In this document: positions 17,971 to 23,410 of the stretch, piece after piece
Position numbering within the stretch: the stretch's first letter is position 1
How the letters are laid out: the number at the start of each line of letters is the position of its first letter
Source of the DNA: Anaerolineales bacterium
Lineage (GTDB): Bacteria > Chloroflexota > Anaerolineae > Anaerolineales > Villigracilaceae
Reading direction: 5' to 3'
Length of the DNA: 64,000 bases
NCBI GenBank assembly: GCA_034435275.1
Contig: DAOTXP010000014.1
Span: 300-64,299 of the forward strand
Program-made: the position numbers and the translations under genes
The notes under the pieces: generated by a model
Database searches by the model: none
The model's input: the letters and a program-made list of their open reading frames with translations, nothing else
What the model was told of the DNA's origin: nothing

Positions 17971-19011
17971 ATGTCTTACGAATTTCTCCAAATCCTTTGG
18001 TTCATCCTGATCGCCGTCCTGTGGATCGGCTTCTACTTCCTCGAAGGTTTCGACTTCGGCGTGGGCATGCTCCTGCCCTTCCTGGGCAAAAAGGATGAAG
18101 AACGCCGCGCCATCATCAACACCATCGGCTCGGTCTGGGACGGGAACGAGGTCTGGCTCCTCACCGCAGGCGGCGCGACCTTCGCGGCCTTCCCGCACTG
18201 GTACGCCACCATGTTCAGCGGCTTCTACCTGCCTCTGTTCCTCCTGCTGGTGGGACTGATCCTGCGCGGCATCTCCTTCGAGTACCGCTCGAAGAACGCC
18301 GACCCGAAATGGCGCTCCCGCTTCGACTGGATGATCGCCGTTGGCTCCTTCCTCGCTTCCCTCCTGCTGGGCACCGCCTTCGCCAATCTTGCCAAAGGCG
18401 TACCCATCGGCGCGGACATGAACTACGTCAGCCCGAACGGCATCATGACCACCCTCGGCCTGCTCAATCCATACGGCCTGATCGGCGGCCTGACAACGGT
18501 GGCGGTCTTCCTCCTGCACGGCGCCAACTTTCTGACCCTCAAACTGGATGGCGACCTTCGCGAACGCGCCCGCGCCTTCGCGAAGAAAATCTACATCTTC
18601 GCCGCGGTCATGGTGGTCTTGCTGGCAGTCACCACCTACATCTACACCGACATCCTGACCAAGATCGGCATCAACCCTGGCATCACCCCCATCCTCTCAC
18701 TGGCAGCCCTGCTGGTCTCCATCTACTTCATCAACCGCAAAATGGAAGGCTGGGCGTTCATTACCGTGTCGCTGCACATCGTGTTGACGCAGATTGCCTT
18801 CTTCACACTGATGTTCCCGCGCGTGATGATTTCCAGTCTCAATCCCGAATGGAGCCTCACCATCTACAACGCCTCGTCCTCGCAATACACGCTCACGGTC
18901 ATGTCAATCGTCGCCCTGATCTTCGTCCCCATCGTGCTTGCCTACCAGGGCTGGACCTACTACATGTTCCGCAAGCGCATCAGCGCCGACAAGAAGACGC
19001 TCGTCTATTAA
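17971..19011 (+). CDS. cydB: Cytochrome bd ubiquinol oxidase subunit II
   Basis: LWFILIAVLWIGFYFLEGFDFGVGML and VWDGNEVWL. The position after cydA is typical for cydB. Confidence 0.95.
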   Translation: MSYEFLQILWFILIAVLWIGFYFLEGFDFGVGMLLPFLGKKDEERRAIINTIGSVWDGNEVWLLTAGGATFAAFPHWYATMFSGFYLPLFLLLVGLILRGISFEYRSKNADPKWRSRFDWMIAVGSFLASLLLGTAFANLAKGVPIGADMNYVSPNGIMTTLGLLNPYGLIGGLTTVAVFLLHGANFLTLKLDGDLRERARAFAKKIYIFAAVMVVLLAVTTYIYTDILTKIGINPGITPILSLAALLVSIYFINRKMEGWAFITVSLHIVLTQIAFFTLMFPRVMISSLNPEWSLTIYNASSSQYTLTVMSIVALIFVPIVLAYQGWTYYMFRKRISADKKTLVY

Positions 19012-19019
19012 GTTCGTTT

Positions 19020-19130
19020 GCACGTTTGAAGGTTTGAACGTTGGAAGGTTGACGGGGTATACTCGCTTCAACCTTCCAACCTTTTAACTTGCCAACCTTC
19101 GACCTTTAACTTTTGACCTTTGACTCAAAT
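19020..19130. repeat. Intergenic heptamer-periodic low-complexity tract with a 13-bp perfect inverted repeat
   Basis: gttggaaggttga (19040-19052) pairs with tcaaccttccaac (19068-19080). The flanks are units of the aaccttc/gaccttt type with 7-nt periodicity. Confidence 0.6.
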
Positions 19131-19133
19131 CTC

Positions 19134-22100
19134 ATGCACCGCCGCCTCCTGATCCTCACCCGCGACACGCGCCTTCCCCTCCTTTCCACGATTCTCTCTG
19201 GACTTCTGGCTGGCTGGCTGACCATTGGACAGGCCTGGCTCCTCAGCAGTGTGATCAACGCGGTCTTTCTCGAGGGACAGAATCTGGCGCAAGTGACAAG
19301 TCCGCTCGCGTTGATCCTCACCATCATCGGCGGACGCGCTCTGCTGACATGGCTTAACGAGGTCTCGGCCAACGCGGTCGCGGTGAAAATCAAAACCGAC
19401 CTGCGCGAGCGCCTCTTCGCGCATATCCTCCGCCTCGGTCCCGCCTATGCGCGCGGACAACGCACAGGCGAACTCACCGCCGCCGCGGTCGAAGGAATCG
19501 AAGCGCTGGACTCGTATTTCAGCCAGTACCTGCCGCAACTGGTTGTCACTGCACTCGTCCCCATTTCCATTTTATTTTTCGTCTTCCCCATTGACCTGCT
19601 CACGGGCTTCGTCTTCCTCCTCACCGCGCCGCTGATTCCCTTCTTCATGATCATGATCGGCAAAGGCGCGGAGATCGTCACCAAACGCCAATATGAGACC
19701 CTGCGCCTGCTCAGCGCCCATTTCCTCGACAGTTTGCAGGGACTGACCACCCTCAAACTCTTCGGCCAGTCGAAAGCCCACGCCAAAAACATCGCCAACG
19801 TCAGCGATCGGTTCCGAGAGGTGACATTGAACGTTTTACGCATTACGTTTTTGTCCGCCCTCGCCCTCGAACTACTGGCCACCCTCAGCACCGCCATCGT
19901 CGCCGTGGAGATCGGCTTCCGCCTCCTTTACAACCGAATGGAATTCCAGCCTGCGCTCTTCCTGCTCGTCCTCGCGCCCGAATTCTACATGCCTCTGCGC
20001 GCCCTCGGCGCAAGGTTCCACGCCGGGATGTCGGGAACAACAGCGGCGAAACGAATTTACGAAATATTGGATACGCCCATTCCTGCGTCAAAGGTCACAG
20101 GTCAAATGTCACAAGTTTCCGACCTTCAACCTTCGACCTTTGACCTTCGACTTGAAAACGTCTCCTTCACCTACCCCCACGAATCGGCGCCCGCCCTCGA
20201 AAACATCAACCTGACCATTCAACACGGCCAGCACATCGCCCTCGTCGGCAAAACGGGAGCGGGAAAATCCACGCTCGTCCATTTGCTGTTGGGATTTATC
20301 CAGCCTTCGTCTGGTGAAATTCGAATACAGGTAGACACGGAGACAGGTACACAGGTAGACAGGTACACAGGTACACGATCGCCAACCGACCTTCATCTTT
20401 CATCTTTCATCCTTCATCCTTCATTCATCGCCTGGGTCCCCCAACGCCCCCACCTCTTCCATGACACCATCGCCGCCAACATCCGTCTTGGCAAACCCGA
20501 TGCCACCGACGAGGAAGTCATTCACGCCGCCAAAGCCGCGCACCTGCACGACTTCATTGAAACCCTCCCCGACAAATACGAGACCGTCATCGGCGAAGGC
20601 GGCGCGCGTCTCTCCAGCGGACAGGCCCAGCGCCTCGCCCTCGCCCGTGCCTTCCTCGTGGACGCTCCTCTCCTTCTCCTCGACGAACCCACCTCCAGCC
20701 TCGACCCTGAGACCGAATCCCTCCTCGAAGAATCCACCCGCCGCCTCATGCAGGGACGCACCGTCCTCACCATCGCGCATCGCCTCAACACCATCTTCCG
20801 CGCCGACCAAATCATTGTCCTCGATGAAGGCAAAATCGTCGAACAAGGCGCGCATGGGGAACTCATACAACAAAAGGGTGTGTACGCGGAGATGGTAAAA
20901 ACGTATCAAGGTGAAAATACAGAGTCAAAAGTCGAAAATCAAAAGTCGGGGGCTTCCGACCTGCGACCTGCGACCTGCGACCGCCAATTACCCATCACTA
21001 ATTACCAATTACCGTCCAATCCCCAATTACCAATCGCCAATTACCAATCGTCAATCGTCAATCGTAAATCCCAAATCCTCCCCCGCCTCCTCGCCTTCCT
21101 CGAGGGCAACTGGCATCTCGTGGCCCTCTCCATCCTGCTCGGCGCGGGGACCATCGGCGCCAGCATCGCGCTCATGGGCACCTCCGCATGGCTCATCTCC
21201 ACTGCCGCGCTACATCCCTCGATTGCCGATCTCGGCGTCTCGGTCGTCGGCGTACGATTCTTCGGCATTGCCCGCGCCGTCTTCCGCTATACAGAGCGCC
21301 TCGTCTCGCACGATGTCACATTTCGATTACTTTCACACCTGCGCGTCTGGTTCTACGAAAAACTGGAACCCCTCGCTCCCGCCCGCCTGATGGAGTTTCG
21401 CGCCGGCGACTTGCTGGCGCGCATCGTCGGCGATGTGGAGACGCTGGAAAACTTCTACGTGCGCGTCGTCTCCCCGCCGCTGACTGCCGCCCTCGTTGGC
21501 CTCTTCACCGCCCTCTTTCTCGCCTCATTCGACCCCGCGCTGGCTCCCGTTTACCTGACCTTTTTCCTCGCCCTCGGCCTGTTCCTGCCCCTCCTCGCGC
21601 AGACAACCAGCCGCCGTCCCGCCGCGCAGACCATCTCCCTGCGCGCCGACCTCCACTCCCGCCTCGTGGACGGCATCCAGGGCATGGCCGACCTGCTTGC
21701 CTATGGCCGCGGCGGAGAACGACTGAAGCAAATTGCATCCACAAGCAACAACTACGGCAACGCCCAACGCCGCATGGCGCGCGTGACAGGCATCCATTCC
21801 GCCCTTTCCACTCTGCTGACCAACCTCGGCATGTGGACGGTGCTTTATTTGTGCATCCCGCTGGCCGTATCGGGTGAACTGGCTGGCCCCATGCTTGCCT
21901 CATTGACTCTGCTGACCTTCGCCTCCTTCGAAGCCGTCACTCCCCTGCCCCTCGCCGCGCAGATGTGGAACGCCTCGCGCGAGGCAGCAAAGCGATTGTT
22001 TGAGGCCGTGGATACGCAGCCAGTGATCAGTGATCGGTTATCAGCGCCCAGTGAACAACCGCAGAGCGCCAATTACCAATTACAAATTACCGACTTGACA

Positions 22101-22811
22101 TTCACCTACCCCAACACCTCCACCCCCGCCCTCGACCGCGTGACCTTCGACCTTCAACCCGGCAAGTCCATCGCCATCGTCGGGCCGAGCGGCGCCGGGA
22201 AGAGTACGATCGCCAATCTACTGCTGCGCTTTTGGGAGTACGAGTCGGGCGAGATCCGTTTGGGCGGCGAATCGCTCCAAGCGCTGAATCAGGACGAGGT
22301 CCGCGCGCGAATCGGGCTCATCTCGCAGAACGCGTATTTCTTCAACGCATCCGTCCGCGAGAATTTGCGCTTCGCGCGGCGCGGGGTCACGCAGGAGGAG
22401 ATCGAGGAGGCGGCGCGGTCCGCGCAAATTCACGATTTTATTTTGAGCCTGCCGAAGGGCTACGATACATTGATCGGCGAGCAGGGACTCAGACTCTCGG
22501 GCGGCGAACGTCAGCGGCTGGCGATTGCGCGCGCCATCATTAAAGACGCGCCGATTTTGATTTTGGACGAACCCACCGCCAACCTCGACGCGTTGACCGA
22601 AAAACAAATTCTCGAAACCCTGTTCGCCTTGATGAAGCGCAAGACATCCCTGCTCATCACCCACCGCCTGGTGGGGTTGGAAAATGTGGATGAAATTCTC
22701 GTGCTGCATCATGGCCGCATCGTCGAACGCGGCGCGCAGGCGGATTTGCTGGCGCGCGGCAGGTTGTACCGCAGATTGTGGGATTTGCAAAATCGCATCT
22801 TTGAGGCATAA
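19134..22811 (+). CDS. cydDC: Fused CydD-CydC thiol-reductant ABC exporter (two TMD-NBD halves in one ORF)
   Basis: Two Walker A motifs (GKTGAGKST, GPSGAGKST), two ABC signatures (LSSGQAQR, LSGGERQR) and two Walker B motifs (LLLLDEPTS, ILILDEPTA). Sits directly after cydAB. The ATG at 19134 (MHRRLL...) is preferred over the TTG at 19113. Confidence 0.85.
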   Translation: MHRRLLILTRDTRLPLLSTILSGLLAGWLTIGQAWLLSSVINAVFLEGQNLAQVTSPLALILTIIGGRALLTWLNEVSANAVAVKIKTDLRERLFAHILRLGPAYARGQRTGELTAAAVEGIEALDSYFSQYLPQLVVTALVPISILFFVFPIDLLTGFVFLLTAPLIPFFMIMIGKGAEIVTKRQYETLRLLSAHFLDSLQGLTTLKLFGQSKAHAKNIANVSDRFREVTLNVLRITFLSALALELLATLSTAIVAVEIGFRLLYNRMEFQPALFLLVLAPEFYMPLRALGARFHAGMSGTTAAKRIYEILDTPIPASKVTGQMSQVSDLQPSTFDLRLENVSFTYPHESAPALENINLTIQHGQHIALVGKTGAGKSTLVHLLLGFIQPSSGEIRIQVDTETGTQVDRYTGTRSPTDLHLSSFILHPSFIAWVPQRPHLFHDTIAANIRLGKPDATDEEVIHAAKAAHLHDFIETLPDKYETVIGEGGARLSSGQAQRLALARAFLVDAPLLLLDEPTSSLDPETESLLEESTRRLMQGRTVLTIAHRLNTIFRADQIIVLDEGKIVEQGAHGELIQQKGVYAEMVKTYQGENTESKVENQKSGASDLRPATCDRQLPITNYQLPSNPQLPIANYQSSIVNRKSQILPRLLAFLEGNWHLVALSILLGAGTIGASIALMGTSAWLISTAALHPSIADLGVSVVGVRFFGIARAVFRYTERLVSHDVTFRLLSHLRVWFYEKLEPLAPARLMEFRAGDLLARIVGDVETLENFYVRVVSPPLTAALVGLFTALFLASFDPALAPVYLTFFLALGLFLPLLAQTTSRRPAAQTISLRADLHSRLVDGIQGMADLLAYGRGGERLKQIASTSNNYGNAQRRMARVTGIHSALSTLLTNLGMWTVLYLCIPLAVSGELAGPMLASLTLLTFASFEAVTPLPLAAQMWNASREAAKRLFEAVDTQPVISDRLSAPSEQPQSANYQLQITDLTFTYPNTSTPALDRVTFDLQPGKSIAIVGPSGAGKSTIANLLLRFWEYESGEIRLGGESLQALNQDEVRARIGLISQNAYFFNASVRENLRFARRGVTQEEIEEAARSAQIHDFILSLPKGYDTLIGEQGLRLSGGERQRLAIARAIIKDAPILILDEPTANLDALTEKQILETLFALMKRKTSLLITHRLVGLENVDEILVLHHGRIVERGAQADLLARGRLYRRLWDLQNRIFEA
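20091..20155 (+). repeat. In-frame heptanucleotide repeat block i (TMD1/NBD1 junction)
   Basis: aggtcac aggtcaa atgtcac ... gaccttc(20121) aaccttc gaccttt gaccttc gacttga. Confidence 0.8.
20326..20429 (+). repeat. In-frame short tandem repeat block ii (inside NBD1, after Walker A)
   Basis: Six 8-nt units of caggtaga/caggtaca, then five 7-nt units of ttcatcy (20392-20426). Confidence 0.85.
20911..21078 (+). repeat. In-frame heptanucleotide repeat block iii (CydD/CydC fusion junction)
   Basis: Three copies of cgacctg (20957-20977). Eight 7-nt units ccaatta/ccaatcg/tcaatcg/taaatcc/caaatcc (21023-21078). Confidence 0.85.
22021..22092 (+). repeat. In-frame heptanucleotide repeat block iv (TMD2/NBD2 junction)
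   Basis: cagtgat cagtgat cggttat cagcgcc cagtgaa ... ccaatta ccaatta caaatta. Confidence 0.75.
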
Positions 22812-22843
22812 TTTGCCCATCACCTATATTGTGGAGGGCTGGA

Positions 22844-23410
22844 ATGACCAAAAGCCGAAAACAGCGCAAGGCCAAAAAACTAGCGCGCGGACAAGCTAAA
22901 AAGGACGCCAAACCTTTGGTTGCCAGGAGAGGCTCGCGCGTGTGGTCGTTCAACCACTTTCGCTCGGTTGTGCTTACCCGCCTGCTCGATGACCTCTATA
23001 ATCTGGAGCAAAGTGGAATCAAGGACGAGTATTGCCAGAAGATCACCGCGGCGCTGAACTACTTCGGAAATGCCGCCACGGACATCCCTTCGGCCGCTCC
23101 GCTCCTGGGACCCATCTACAAGGATATCGAGAAATTCACGGAACTTTACCAGAGATGGAACGACGTGAAAGGAAAGGATGCAGATAAAGTGGAGGAGCGC
23201 CGCGCTCTGCGCCTGAAACTGAAAGCCCAGCGTCACCACATCACCAACAAGGCGCGTAAATTGCAGGTCGCTATTGACGAGAAACTGGATGCAAAACTGC
23301 TCGAGGCAGGTTACCAGGCCTTGGCGGGATTGATCACGGCCGTGCCCGACCTGTTCAGCGGACTTGGCAAAGCCTTAACCGCCTATGCAAAACGAGGCGG
23401 CACTTCCTGA
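22844..23410 (+). CDS. Hypothetical protein with a Lys/Arg-rich N-terminus
   Basis: The ATG at 22844 follows ggaggg. MTKSRKQRKAKKLARGQAKKDAK..., with a helical or coiled-coil-looking remainder. No family recognised. Confidence 0.5.
   Translation: MTKSRKQRKAKKLARGQAKKDAKPLVARRGSRVWSFNHFRSVVLTRLLDDLYNLEQSGIKDEYCQKITAALNYFGNAATDIPSAAPLLGPIYKDIEKFTELYQRWNDVKGKDADKVEERRALRLKLKAQRHHITNKARKLQVAIDEKLDAKLLEAGYQALAGLITAVPDLFSGLGKALTAYAKRGGTS

Follow-up and report, generated by a model that had tools for sequence, protein, structure and literature searches.

The fused cydDC gene on the window analysed here, a 64,000-nt stretch of contig DAOTXP010000014.1 from an Anaerolineales bacterium (Chloroflexota), was found to carry four blocks of short tandem arrays, built mainly of 7-nt units and read in frame, and units of the same kind fill the spacer between cydB and cydDC. 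These blocks probably stem from a heptamer repeat process that acts throughout the lineage and is filtered by selection for an open reading frame. The observations that bear on this directly are the distribution of the arrays over the genome and the class, the conservation of the array-bearing slots while their units turn over, the stop-avoiding orientation of arrays within genes, the frames of the indels between close strains and the disorder of the slots in a structural model. The window forms part of contig C14 of a metagenome-assembled genome (MAG) of 3.17 Mb (315 contigs, 58% G+C, contamination 4.8%), the nearest public relatives of which are Anaerolineales (Chloroflexota) MAGs. The region 18700–23200 of the window was read directly and scanned with Tandem Repeats Finder (TRF).

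The gene encodes two transmembrane domains (TMD1 and TMD2) and two nucleotide-binding domains (NBD1 and NBD2), and its arrays lie in four slots, S1 to S4, as listed below in window coordinates.

19134 to 22811, + strand: fused cydDC gene (ATG at 19134, 1225 aa; identified with Pfam and NCBIfam; identical protein on public record)
Domain order of cydDC, + strand: TMD1, NBD1, linker, TMD2, NBD2 (two ABC_membrane and two ABC_tran domains)
19012 to 19133, + strand: cydB-cydDC spacer, nearly all repeat units (TRF)
19015 to 19050 (period 8/16), 19069 to 19100 and 19095 to 19124: TRF arrays of the spacer
20087 to 20151, + strand: slot S1 (block i), TMD1-NBD1 linker; GTCAAAG x3.6 at 20087–20113 and CGACCTT x4.6 at 20120–20151
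20327 to 20424, + strand: slot S2 (block ii), within NBD1; ACAGGTAC x6.2 at 20327–20376 and CCTTCAT x5.0 at 20390–20424
20922 to 21078, + strand: slot S3 (block iii), CydD/CydC junction linker (TRF and direct reading)
22021 to 22091, + strand: slot S4 (block iv), TMD2-NBD2 linker; CAGTGAT x3.4 at 22021–22044 and CCAATTA x3.3 at 22069–22091

The arrays of the spacer and the four slots are of 7-nt units, with one array of 8-nt units, and total ~390 nt, equal to 10.6% of cydDC. Each consists of 3–10 units and is imperfect, with a match of 65–100% (TRF). In the spacer, a G-rich arm of GTTTGAA/GTTGGAA-type units (19015–19050) and a C-rich arm of CAACCTT/GACCTTT-type units (19069–19124) form a hairpin. 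The CGACCTT array of S1 is a near-complement of the GTCAAAG array preceding it, and the slot is translated as KVTGQMSQVSDLQPSTFDLRL. Slot S2 is bounded by the strand that follows Walker A and the one that precedes the Q-loop, and it takes the place of the canonical 'IDG..L......WR..V' segment. Within S3, TRF identified CGACCTG x3.7 (20957–20982), CCAATTA x9.7 (20984–21048) and CAATCGT x3.7 (21045–21070), GTCAAAA-type units were read directly at 20922–20948, and the peptide includes RPATCDRQLPITNYQLPSNPQLPIANYQSSIVNRKS. The CAGTGAT and CCAATTA arrays of S4 are able to pair via G-U. A first-pass annotation of this DNA, made from the letters alone, had listed these heptamer blocks, and every one of them was recovered by TRF and direct reading, including the 8-nt subblock of block ii. 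The sites stood as described, but two blocks are larger than had been noted, as GTCAAAG units precede block i at 20087–20113 and the CCAATTA array of block iii begins at 20984. The same cydDC word family does fill the upstream spacer (19012–19133), as had been described, and profile matches and alignment place the blocks at domain boundaries, with one in a loop of NBD1.

A census of the whole genome was made with TRF, using a genome simulated with a third-order Markov model as the control and treating arrays with a score of at least 40 as strong. It returned 296 period-7 and 178 period-8 rows. Seventy five period-7 arrays reached a score of at least 40, compared with none in the simulation, confirming that the heptamers recur elsewhere in the genome, a point for which the first-pass annotation had proposed such a mapping. 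At a score of at least 50 period 7 was dominant, with 28 arrays (none in the simulation) against 0, 6, and 1 for periods 6, 8, and 9, respectively. The commonest units in the genome are those found in cydDC, namely AACCTTC/GACCTTC, CAGTGAT, CCAATTA, TTCATCC, AAAGTCG and the 8-mer ACAGGTAC. With at most 3 mismatches, (AACCTTC)x3 was matched 64 times at ~44 loci (chance expectation ~0.05), and CCAATTA, CAGTGAT, and TTCATCC occur at 14–16 loci each. When period-7/8 arrays with a score of at least 40 were merged, 132 loci were obtained, 77 of them (58%) in coding sequence, 37 intergenic and 18 straddling gene ends. Non-coding DNA, which makes up 14% of the genome, holds 42% of the strong arrays, an enrichment of ~3-fold. 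The genome-wide family of intergenic-type repeats suggested at first reading is thus present and enriched outside genes, but it is not mainly intergenic.

The genes that carry arrays include those for PriA, HypF, MutL, RecJ, GlyS, two Cu-ATPases, an ABC-F protein and a formate-dehydrogenase-like protein, while a 1689-aa membrane protein carries six. Within the carrier proteins the arrays are positioned in linkers or loops. Those of PriA lie directly before Walker A and within the Cys-rich region, that of MutL lies in the well-known disordered linker which joins the ATPase domain to the dimerisation domain, and that of GlyS is a 26-aa insert which equals the excess of the protein over its Pfam model. 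Arrays are evenly spread along genes and not concentrated at the 5' end, and their purity and copy number are alike inside and outside genes. Seven codons (21 nt) span exactly three 7-nt units, so that successive units of an array are translated in each of the three frames before the pattern repeats; hence the peptide words NLQPSTF, PITNYQL, VISDQSS, and FRIQNSE, which are the three-frame readings of AACCTTC, CCAATTA, CAGTGAT, and AATTCAG, respectively. A stop-containing unit was found in 13 of 81 arrays in coding sequence when read in the sense direction and in 42 of 81 in the antisense direction; such units account for ~31% of all possible units and for 40–50% of intergenic arrays. The difference between sense and antisense indicates that array orientation is filtered by the need for an open frame.

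The fused form of cydDC is the norm within the family, and its orthologs were first compared in an alignment of 16 sequences; the comparison was then widened to 145 distinct Anaerolineales orthologs, taken from collections of genomes and metagenomes of independent studies. In the 16-sequence alignment the four slots of the close orthologs are likewise occupied by heptamer arrays, though of other units (CGATATT, GAAAGTG, TTATCAG, CAAGTTA, and others), while distant orthologs have ordinary non-repeat sequence of similar length there. Between its anchors S2 measures 43 aa in the canonical form, as against 60 aa in the present protein, while two orthologs (L010 and L013) have 35 aa; the match to E. 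coli CydD (PDB 7ZD5) stops at residue 396, at this slot. Slot S4 is 50 aa long here and 47–50 aa in non-repeat orthologs, with no net gain relative to TIGR02868. Over the whole CydC half, 528 residues correspond to 527 positions of that model (+1), and the CydD half exceeds TIGR02857 by 23. Slots that hold repeats and slots that do not are thus of similar length, and the arrays therefore overwrite pre-existing variable linkers more than they insert into them. The suggestion that repeats were inserted and tolerated as linkers is therefore retained as regards tolerance, the segments being low-confidence and linker-like in the structural model described below, but modified as regards insertion. 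An alignment intended to define the inserted residues gave no net gain in the CydC half and the 23 additional residues of the CydD half. That repeat-free orthologs might share the very residues of the slots, which would have spoken against insertion, was not the case, as they hold non-repeat sequence of similar length.

Among the 145 orthologs, identity at a lag of 7 nt within the slots is 0.46–0.52 vs. ~0.25 at other lags, and lag 7 is the strongest in 108–122 orthologs per slot (114 for S1). In four conserved control segments of the same 145 orthologs, lags of 3, 6, and 12 dominate and lag 7 was never the strongest at a match of at least 0.55. Certain unit families recur by slot: CCAATTA and TTCATCC in S2, GTCAAAG/GACCTTC or CAGTNAT in S1, and CAGTNAT with CCAATTA in S4. 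When the slot columns were left out of the tree, the presence of a unit family was seen to flip 19–33 times, close to the shuffled expectation; as the count relies on a FastTree topology and a stringent array detector, with changes inflated by detection flicker, it is of qualitative use only. Flip counts so near to shuffled ones imply that units turn over, or that degenerate seeds are lost and re-amplified, at a rate that is fast relative to speciation. A discrete element with presence and absence was not what was seen, since the orthologs differ gradually and unit-wise, with other units in the same slot.

The distribution across the class was sampled in 201 Anaerolineae genomes, in which two unit families (AACCTTC and CTTCCAA) were counted. 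Arrays resembling (AACCTTC)x3 were found in 65 of the 201. Although meant as a control, (CTTCCAA)x3 proved to be abundant in other families, with up to 240 matches, and many families have none. Anaerolineae thus have a wide but patchy distribution of heptamer arrays, the units of which are lineage-specific.

Close strains were available from the 90% protein cluster, which contains four alleles of 1225, 1225, 1219, and 1226 aa that are 96–99.7% identical, and DNA was aligned for two of the strains (L181 and L182). The sole indel in the 3.7-kb gene lies in the CCAATTA array of S3 (~20981–21015) in L181, with a net change of −21 nt, equal to 3 units or 7 aa. In the spacer the same strain has an additional 14 nt (tttgacctttgacc, 2 units) at 19111. 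Point differences between close strains are denser within arrays. Unit-wise gain and loss therefore happens, out of frame where this is harmless (the spacer) and in frame within the gene. The variation in unit number for which a comparison of related strains had been suggested was thus found, but no frameshifted cydDC allele was present among the four near-identical alleles.

These data bear on the proposal of the first-pass annotation that the repeats make cydDC a slippage-prone contingency locus, at which gain or loss of a single unit would shift the frame and switch the gene on or off in the population. The unit length, being no multiple of 3, would suit such a switch, and unit number does change between close strains (+14 nt in the spacer, −21 nt in S3). 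However, the arrays are short and imperfect, the four near-identical alleles are all in frame with a single coding indel of 21 nt, and all 145 orthologs used have open frames. The same arrays occur in priA, mutL, recJ, and glyS, in which on-off switching would kill the cell or raise its mutation rate. Arrays are also distributed evenly over the length of genes, and some are inherited between genera (L001 and L010). The tracts of contingency loci are long, perfect and 5'-proximal, they are located in surface or restriction genes and they show frame-shifting polymorphism. With such loci, as represented by the simple sequence repeats (SSRs) of Haemophilus and Neisseria, the arrays share a unit of non-multiple-of-3 length inside an open reading frame (ORF), but none of the tract features was found here. 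A contingency role is not supported and is judged very improbable.

Mis-assembly of repeats into the gene could also be imagined, as the genome is a fragmented MAG with measurable contamination. This idea was refuted, and it is given practically no weight: an identical protein is found in the public record, the arrays recur at 96–99.7% identity in three additional assemblies made from other samples, and the 145 orthologs from independent studies are alike, with the frame open through every array. An assembly artefact, which had been named as a finding that would undo the first reading, is thereby set aside. Programmed frameshifting was likewise rejected, since independent assemblies reproduce the same open frame.

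The structure of residues 1–693 (numbered from the ATG) was modelled with AlphaFold2 from a 62-sequence alignment. The confidence measure, predicted local distance difference test (pLDDT), is 88–96 in TMD1 and NBD1 and falls below 50 at residues 320–332 (S1) and 597–647 (S3), while S2 scores 53–66, and below 50 at 419–426. Low pLDDT at S1–S3 matches what would be expected of flexible surface linkers, in agreement with the surface loops that had been anticipated.

At the RNA level, the spacer folds with a predicted −33.8 kcal/mol (z −3.9; none of 200 shuffles as good), and hairpins of −22.2 kcal/mol (z −4.3) and −20.9 kcal/mol (z −4.6) were obtained for S1 and S4, respectively. For S2 and both parts of S3, no RNA fold better than that of the shuffles was found. 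RNA structure as a general property of the arrays was therefore rejected, only 3 of 6 segments folding better than shuffles. The S1 and S4 hairpins, which lie directly before each NBD, are among the points in favor of an exapted function, whereby arrays would be kept for their DNA or RNA (as mRNA hairpins at which ribosomes pause at domain boundaries to allow co-translational folding, or as sites bound by a nucleic-acid-binding protein) or as selected peptide linkers. The recurrence of the same unit families per slot and the persistence of the 7-nt periodicity in four slots of 108–122 of 145 orthologs, despite saturated divergence elsewhere, would also fit. Exaptation is nevertheless judged quite improbable, given that both unit and length are free to vary, that distant orthologs work without repeats in their linkers, and that S2 and S3 are without structure. 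In addition, a requirement at the peptide level would conserve a 21-nt period and not a 7-nt one, and spacers, like unrelated loops in genes of other kinds, contain arrays just as often.

Across the genome, adjacent array pairs are inverted in 16 of 34 cases and direct in 3. An inverted partner (match of at least 12/14 within 90 nt) was identified for 30 of the 132 arrays, compared with 1 and 9 in two controls, and such partners are commoner outside genes. In 15 of 18 inverted pairs the G-rich arm precedes the other arm, a property which is independent of strand; the three exceptions are G/C-balanced 8-mers. Separately, inverted pairs of 8-nt GTACACAG-type arrays were observed at gene ends on four contigs (C47, 23395–23473 and 23719–23797; C54, 1907–1986; C259, 20179–20255; C73, 21811–21881) and are possibly terminator-like hairpins. 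The same 8-mer family is also translated in slot S2 of cydDC.

Inverted arms were also encountered around genes of PF05635 (23S_rRNA_IVP), a family to which Avd of diversity-generating retroelements belongs. Five copies are present in the genome, all between inverted repeat arms (clear in four of the five), at the following loci.

L183, 1430 to 1870 (contig C299, 4128 to 4568): PF05635 gene
L185, 1420 to 1880 (contig C299, 16637 to 17097): PF05635 gene
L184, L186 and L187: one PF05635 gene each

Heptamer units are evident in the arms of ~3 of these copies and the others have 8- and 9-nt units. The upstream arm is G-rich and the downstream arm C-rich (e.g., GTTCAAG/GTCGAAA... vs. CTTAAAC/CTTCGAA...). 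Flank-duplex energies of three PF05635 genes were −51, −54, and −46 kcal/mol, compared with −32 ± 9 kcal/mol for random genes, placing 2–3 of them within the lowest 1–7%; this test is only partly clean, in that the ORF boundaries on contig C212 are off and the random background is broad, and the calling of the arms is based instead on direct reading and repeat search. Among the 201 genomes, which are related and were scored for two unit families, PF05635 copies rise with heptamer hits (medians 1, 4, 6.5, and 9; Spearman 0.60). The association of PF05635 with heptamers is a lead, not a result.

It does lend some substance to an origin in small mobile hairpin elements with inverted heptamer stems, analogous to the palindromic elements of Rickettsia or to rRNA intervening sequences. 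Full copies of these would enclose the Avd-like four-helix-bundle gene of PF05635, and empty or half stems would have been inserted at many sites, coding linkers included, with slippage following. Such an origin would accommodate the excess of inverted partners (30 of 132 arrays within 90 nt vs. 1–9 in controls) and of inverted over direct adjacent pairs, the G-rich-first order, the significant folding of S1, S4, and the spacer, and the presence of the same units at dozens of loci. The position of all five PF05635 genes between inverted arms, the low flank-duplex energy of 2–3 of them and the copy number correlation are further points in its favor. However, ~77% of the arrays lack an inverted partner, no fold was obtained for S2 or most of S3, and no target-site duplication or clean presence/absence insertion was observed. 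Between strains the arrays differ by whole units (14 and 21 nt), and both relatedness and the choice of only two unit families confound the PF05635 correlation. Mobile hairpins are on balance an unlikely source of the arrays. It is a rather doubtful proposition that the arrays are the footprint of undescribed, very small mobile or self-propagating hairpin elements resembling rRNA intervening sequences, with stems of inverted heptamer arrays in which the G-rich arm always leads, with a full form that encloses a PF05635 gene and with empty or half stems sown genome-wide, including in the CydDC linkers.

The process that we favor, a lineage-wide turnover of heptamers filtered by selection for open frames, could operate as follows. 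Short arrays from a limited set of 7-nt (and some 8-nt) units would be continually born, expanded, contracted and replaced throughout the genome, with units presumably gained and lost by replication slippage or unequal exchange, and with possible seeding by small hairpin-forming elements built of inverted arrays. Selection would purge arrays wherever sequence matters, so that survivors would be left between genes and, in frame, in barely constrained protein segments. In CydDC the tolerant segments would be the linkers that join each TMD to its NBD, a degenerate loop of NBD1 and the linker at the fusion of CydD with CydC. Surviving orientations would be those in which the unit is stop-free in every frame or in which copies have mutated at the stop, surviving net lengths in genes would be multiples of 3, and the translated peptides would merely serve as flexible linkers.

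Several points weigh against this account. The same few units are found at dozens of unrelated loci and recur in the CydDC slots of scattered lineages, which pure local slippage leaves unexplained; some dispersal, sequence preference or DNA/RNA-level function is needed. About a quarter of the arrays stand in inverted pairs with fixed chirality (G-rich first in 15 of 18), which slippage alone does not predict. A 7-nt periodicity that persists across orthologs with 60–80% protein identity needs continuous regeneration or selection, and the neutrality of the translated peptides is a matter of inference. The coding and intergenic counts, moreover, come from our own codon-usage caller, which is crude (2833 genes, 85.8% coding).

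The gene itself lies in the order cydA, cydB, cydDC, a 193-aa ORF and rho. The ORF on the + strand at 19113–22811 is uninterrupted and its frame is open across all arrays, so that the 1232-aa ORF described at first pass was correct in its frame but not in its start, which is placed at ATG 19134 (MHRRLL), common to the orthologs and the public record, to give 1225 aa. The alternative TTG start at 19113 (1232 aa) was dropped, as it lies inside the repeat spacer and that form is without a public record, whereas the ATG 19134 form is recorded. With this start the cydB-cydDC spacer spans 19012–19133. The CydD half matches TIGR02857 over residues 20–570 with 913 bits (cut-off 435) and the CydC half matches TIGR02868 over residues 659–1186 with 798 bits (cut-off 329). 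Walker A, Walker B and signature motifs are intact in both halves. On the basis of the CydD/CydC models, the ATP-binding cassette (ABC) motifs and the cydAB neighborhood, the product is predicted to be a CydDC thiol/heme ABC exporter. As judged from sequence, cydDC appears to be an ordinary functional gene of a cydAB-cydDC operon, with odd-looking linkers, and not phase-variable.

The 193-aa ORF between cydDC and rho (22829–23410) has no Pfam match. It is missing in the near-identical strains L181 and L182, which diverge from window position 22796 and have rho directly next, and it is a strain-specific insertion or deletion. Split counterparts were observed in relatives of the fused gene. In genome G007 (L189; C17, 48850–49200) cydD and cydC overlap at stop and start (ATGA), and in G008 (L188; C3, 246150–246600) separate cydD and cydC genes have a short non-repeat junction. 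The repeat-filled junction of ~50–90 aa is specific to the fused form. The possibility that the D/C junction is a read-through intergenic repeat spacer was found to be unsupported, as the split genes of G007 have no spacer (ATGA) and neither G007 nor G008 shows arrays at the junction.

Heptanucleotide repeats have been reported as short tandemly repeated repetitive (STRR) sequences in the cyanobacteria Calothrix, Nostoc, and Anabaena (Mazel et al., 1990, as cited in PMC4692102). The arrays described here resemble STRR sequences in their tandem 7-nt units, in the few units dispersed over many loci, in their non-coding enrichment, unexplained generation and filamentous host, but they differ in that the host is a member of the Chloroflexota (Anaerolineales) and in that most strong arrays are translated in frame inside housekeeping genes. 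The units here presumably also differ from those of STRR1–3. With arrays beyond chance and few units dispersed over many loci, they belong to the STRR-like or heptanucleotide long SSR class. They do not belong to STRR sensu stricto, as they are not predominantly intergenic (77 of 132 in coding sequence) and the host is not a heterocystous cyanobacterium.

Heptamers of the type GGGAATC in Xanthomonas, where the unit is hugely enriched, and GGGGA(C/T)T in Nostoc were described by Rehm et al. (2015; PMC4692102), according to whom over-representation had been noted in 2007 and hardly studied. Heptanucleotides were described as the most abundant class of 'long SSR' (Mrazek et al., 2007, as summarized in PMC4679880). 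The present arrays are similar in that heptamers are the dominant long SSR, of ~3–8 units and dispersed, and GGGAATC arrays occur here too, but units are mostly C-rich on the sense strand, not prone to form G-quadruplexes, and 58% coding. The GGGAATC rotations CGGGAAT/TCGGGAA were observed on three contigs (C147, 6981–7040; C75, 49365–49420; C29, 6382–6407). The same units thus recur across phyla, as seen for GGGAATC in Xanthomonas (PMC4692102) and for CAGTTAT, comparable with TAACTGA of Beggiatoaceae (PMC4679880). In marine Beggiatoaceae and some cyanobacteria, TAACTGA repeats are mostly intergenic and directly upstream of start codons, with 25 ORF-associated sets only, mostly at protein ends; reversed, the unit reads LSVISYQ and is possibly tolerated between protein modules (MacGregor, 2015; PMC4679880). 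The CAGTTAT/CAGTGAT units here are its reverse complement or a one-base variant thereof and share the peptide words VISD/ISYQ, but many unit families coexist here, in internal linkers.

Another parallel is offered by the Rickettsia palindromic elements (RPEs), which Ogata et al. are said to have described in 2000 in frame within protein-coding genes. In both cases repeat DNA is read in frame in housekeeping genes, in function-compatible surface segments, and it appears to be partly palindromic. The RPEs, however, are dispersed elements of 100–150 bp without tandem heptamer substructure, while the arrays here are short, evolve unit-wise and are mostly not palindromic. A literature search found no report that pairs heptamer repeats with Chloroflexi or Anaerolineae, and the Rehm and MacGregor papers mention no Chloroflexi.

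Heptanucleotide repeats have thus been known since 1990 as STRR sequences and since 2007 as the most abundant class of long SSR, with their origin unexplained, and they have been described as avoiding coding DNA. Here heptamers are translated in frame, throughout a class, in unconstrained linkers and loops of essential proteins, and a 7-nt periodicity is kept at the same protein positions across 145 orthologs while units turn over. The hairpin chirality and the PF05635 association offer a concrete handle on mechanism. The arrays mark, as on a map drawn by nature, the places at which proteins accept arbitrary sequence, and they constitute a clean system for following repeat birth and death under a frame filter, with 14-nt steps outside genes and 21-nt steps inside.

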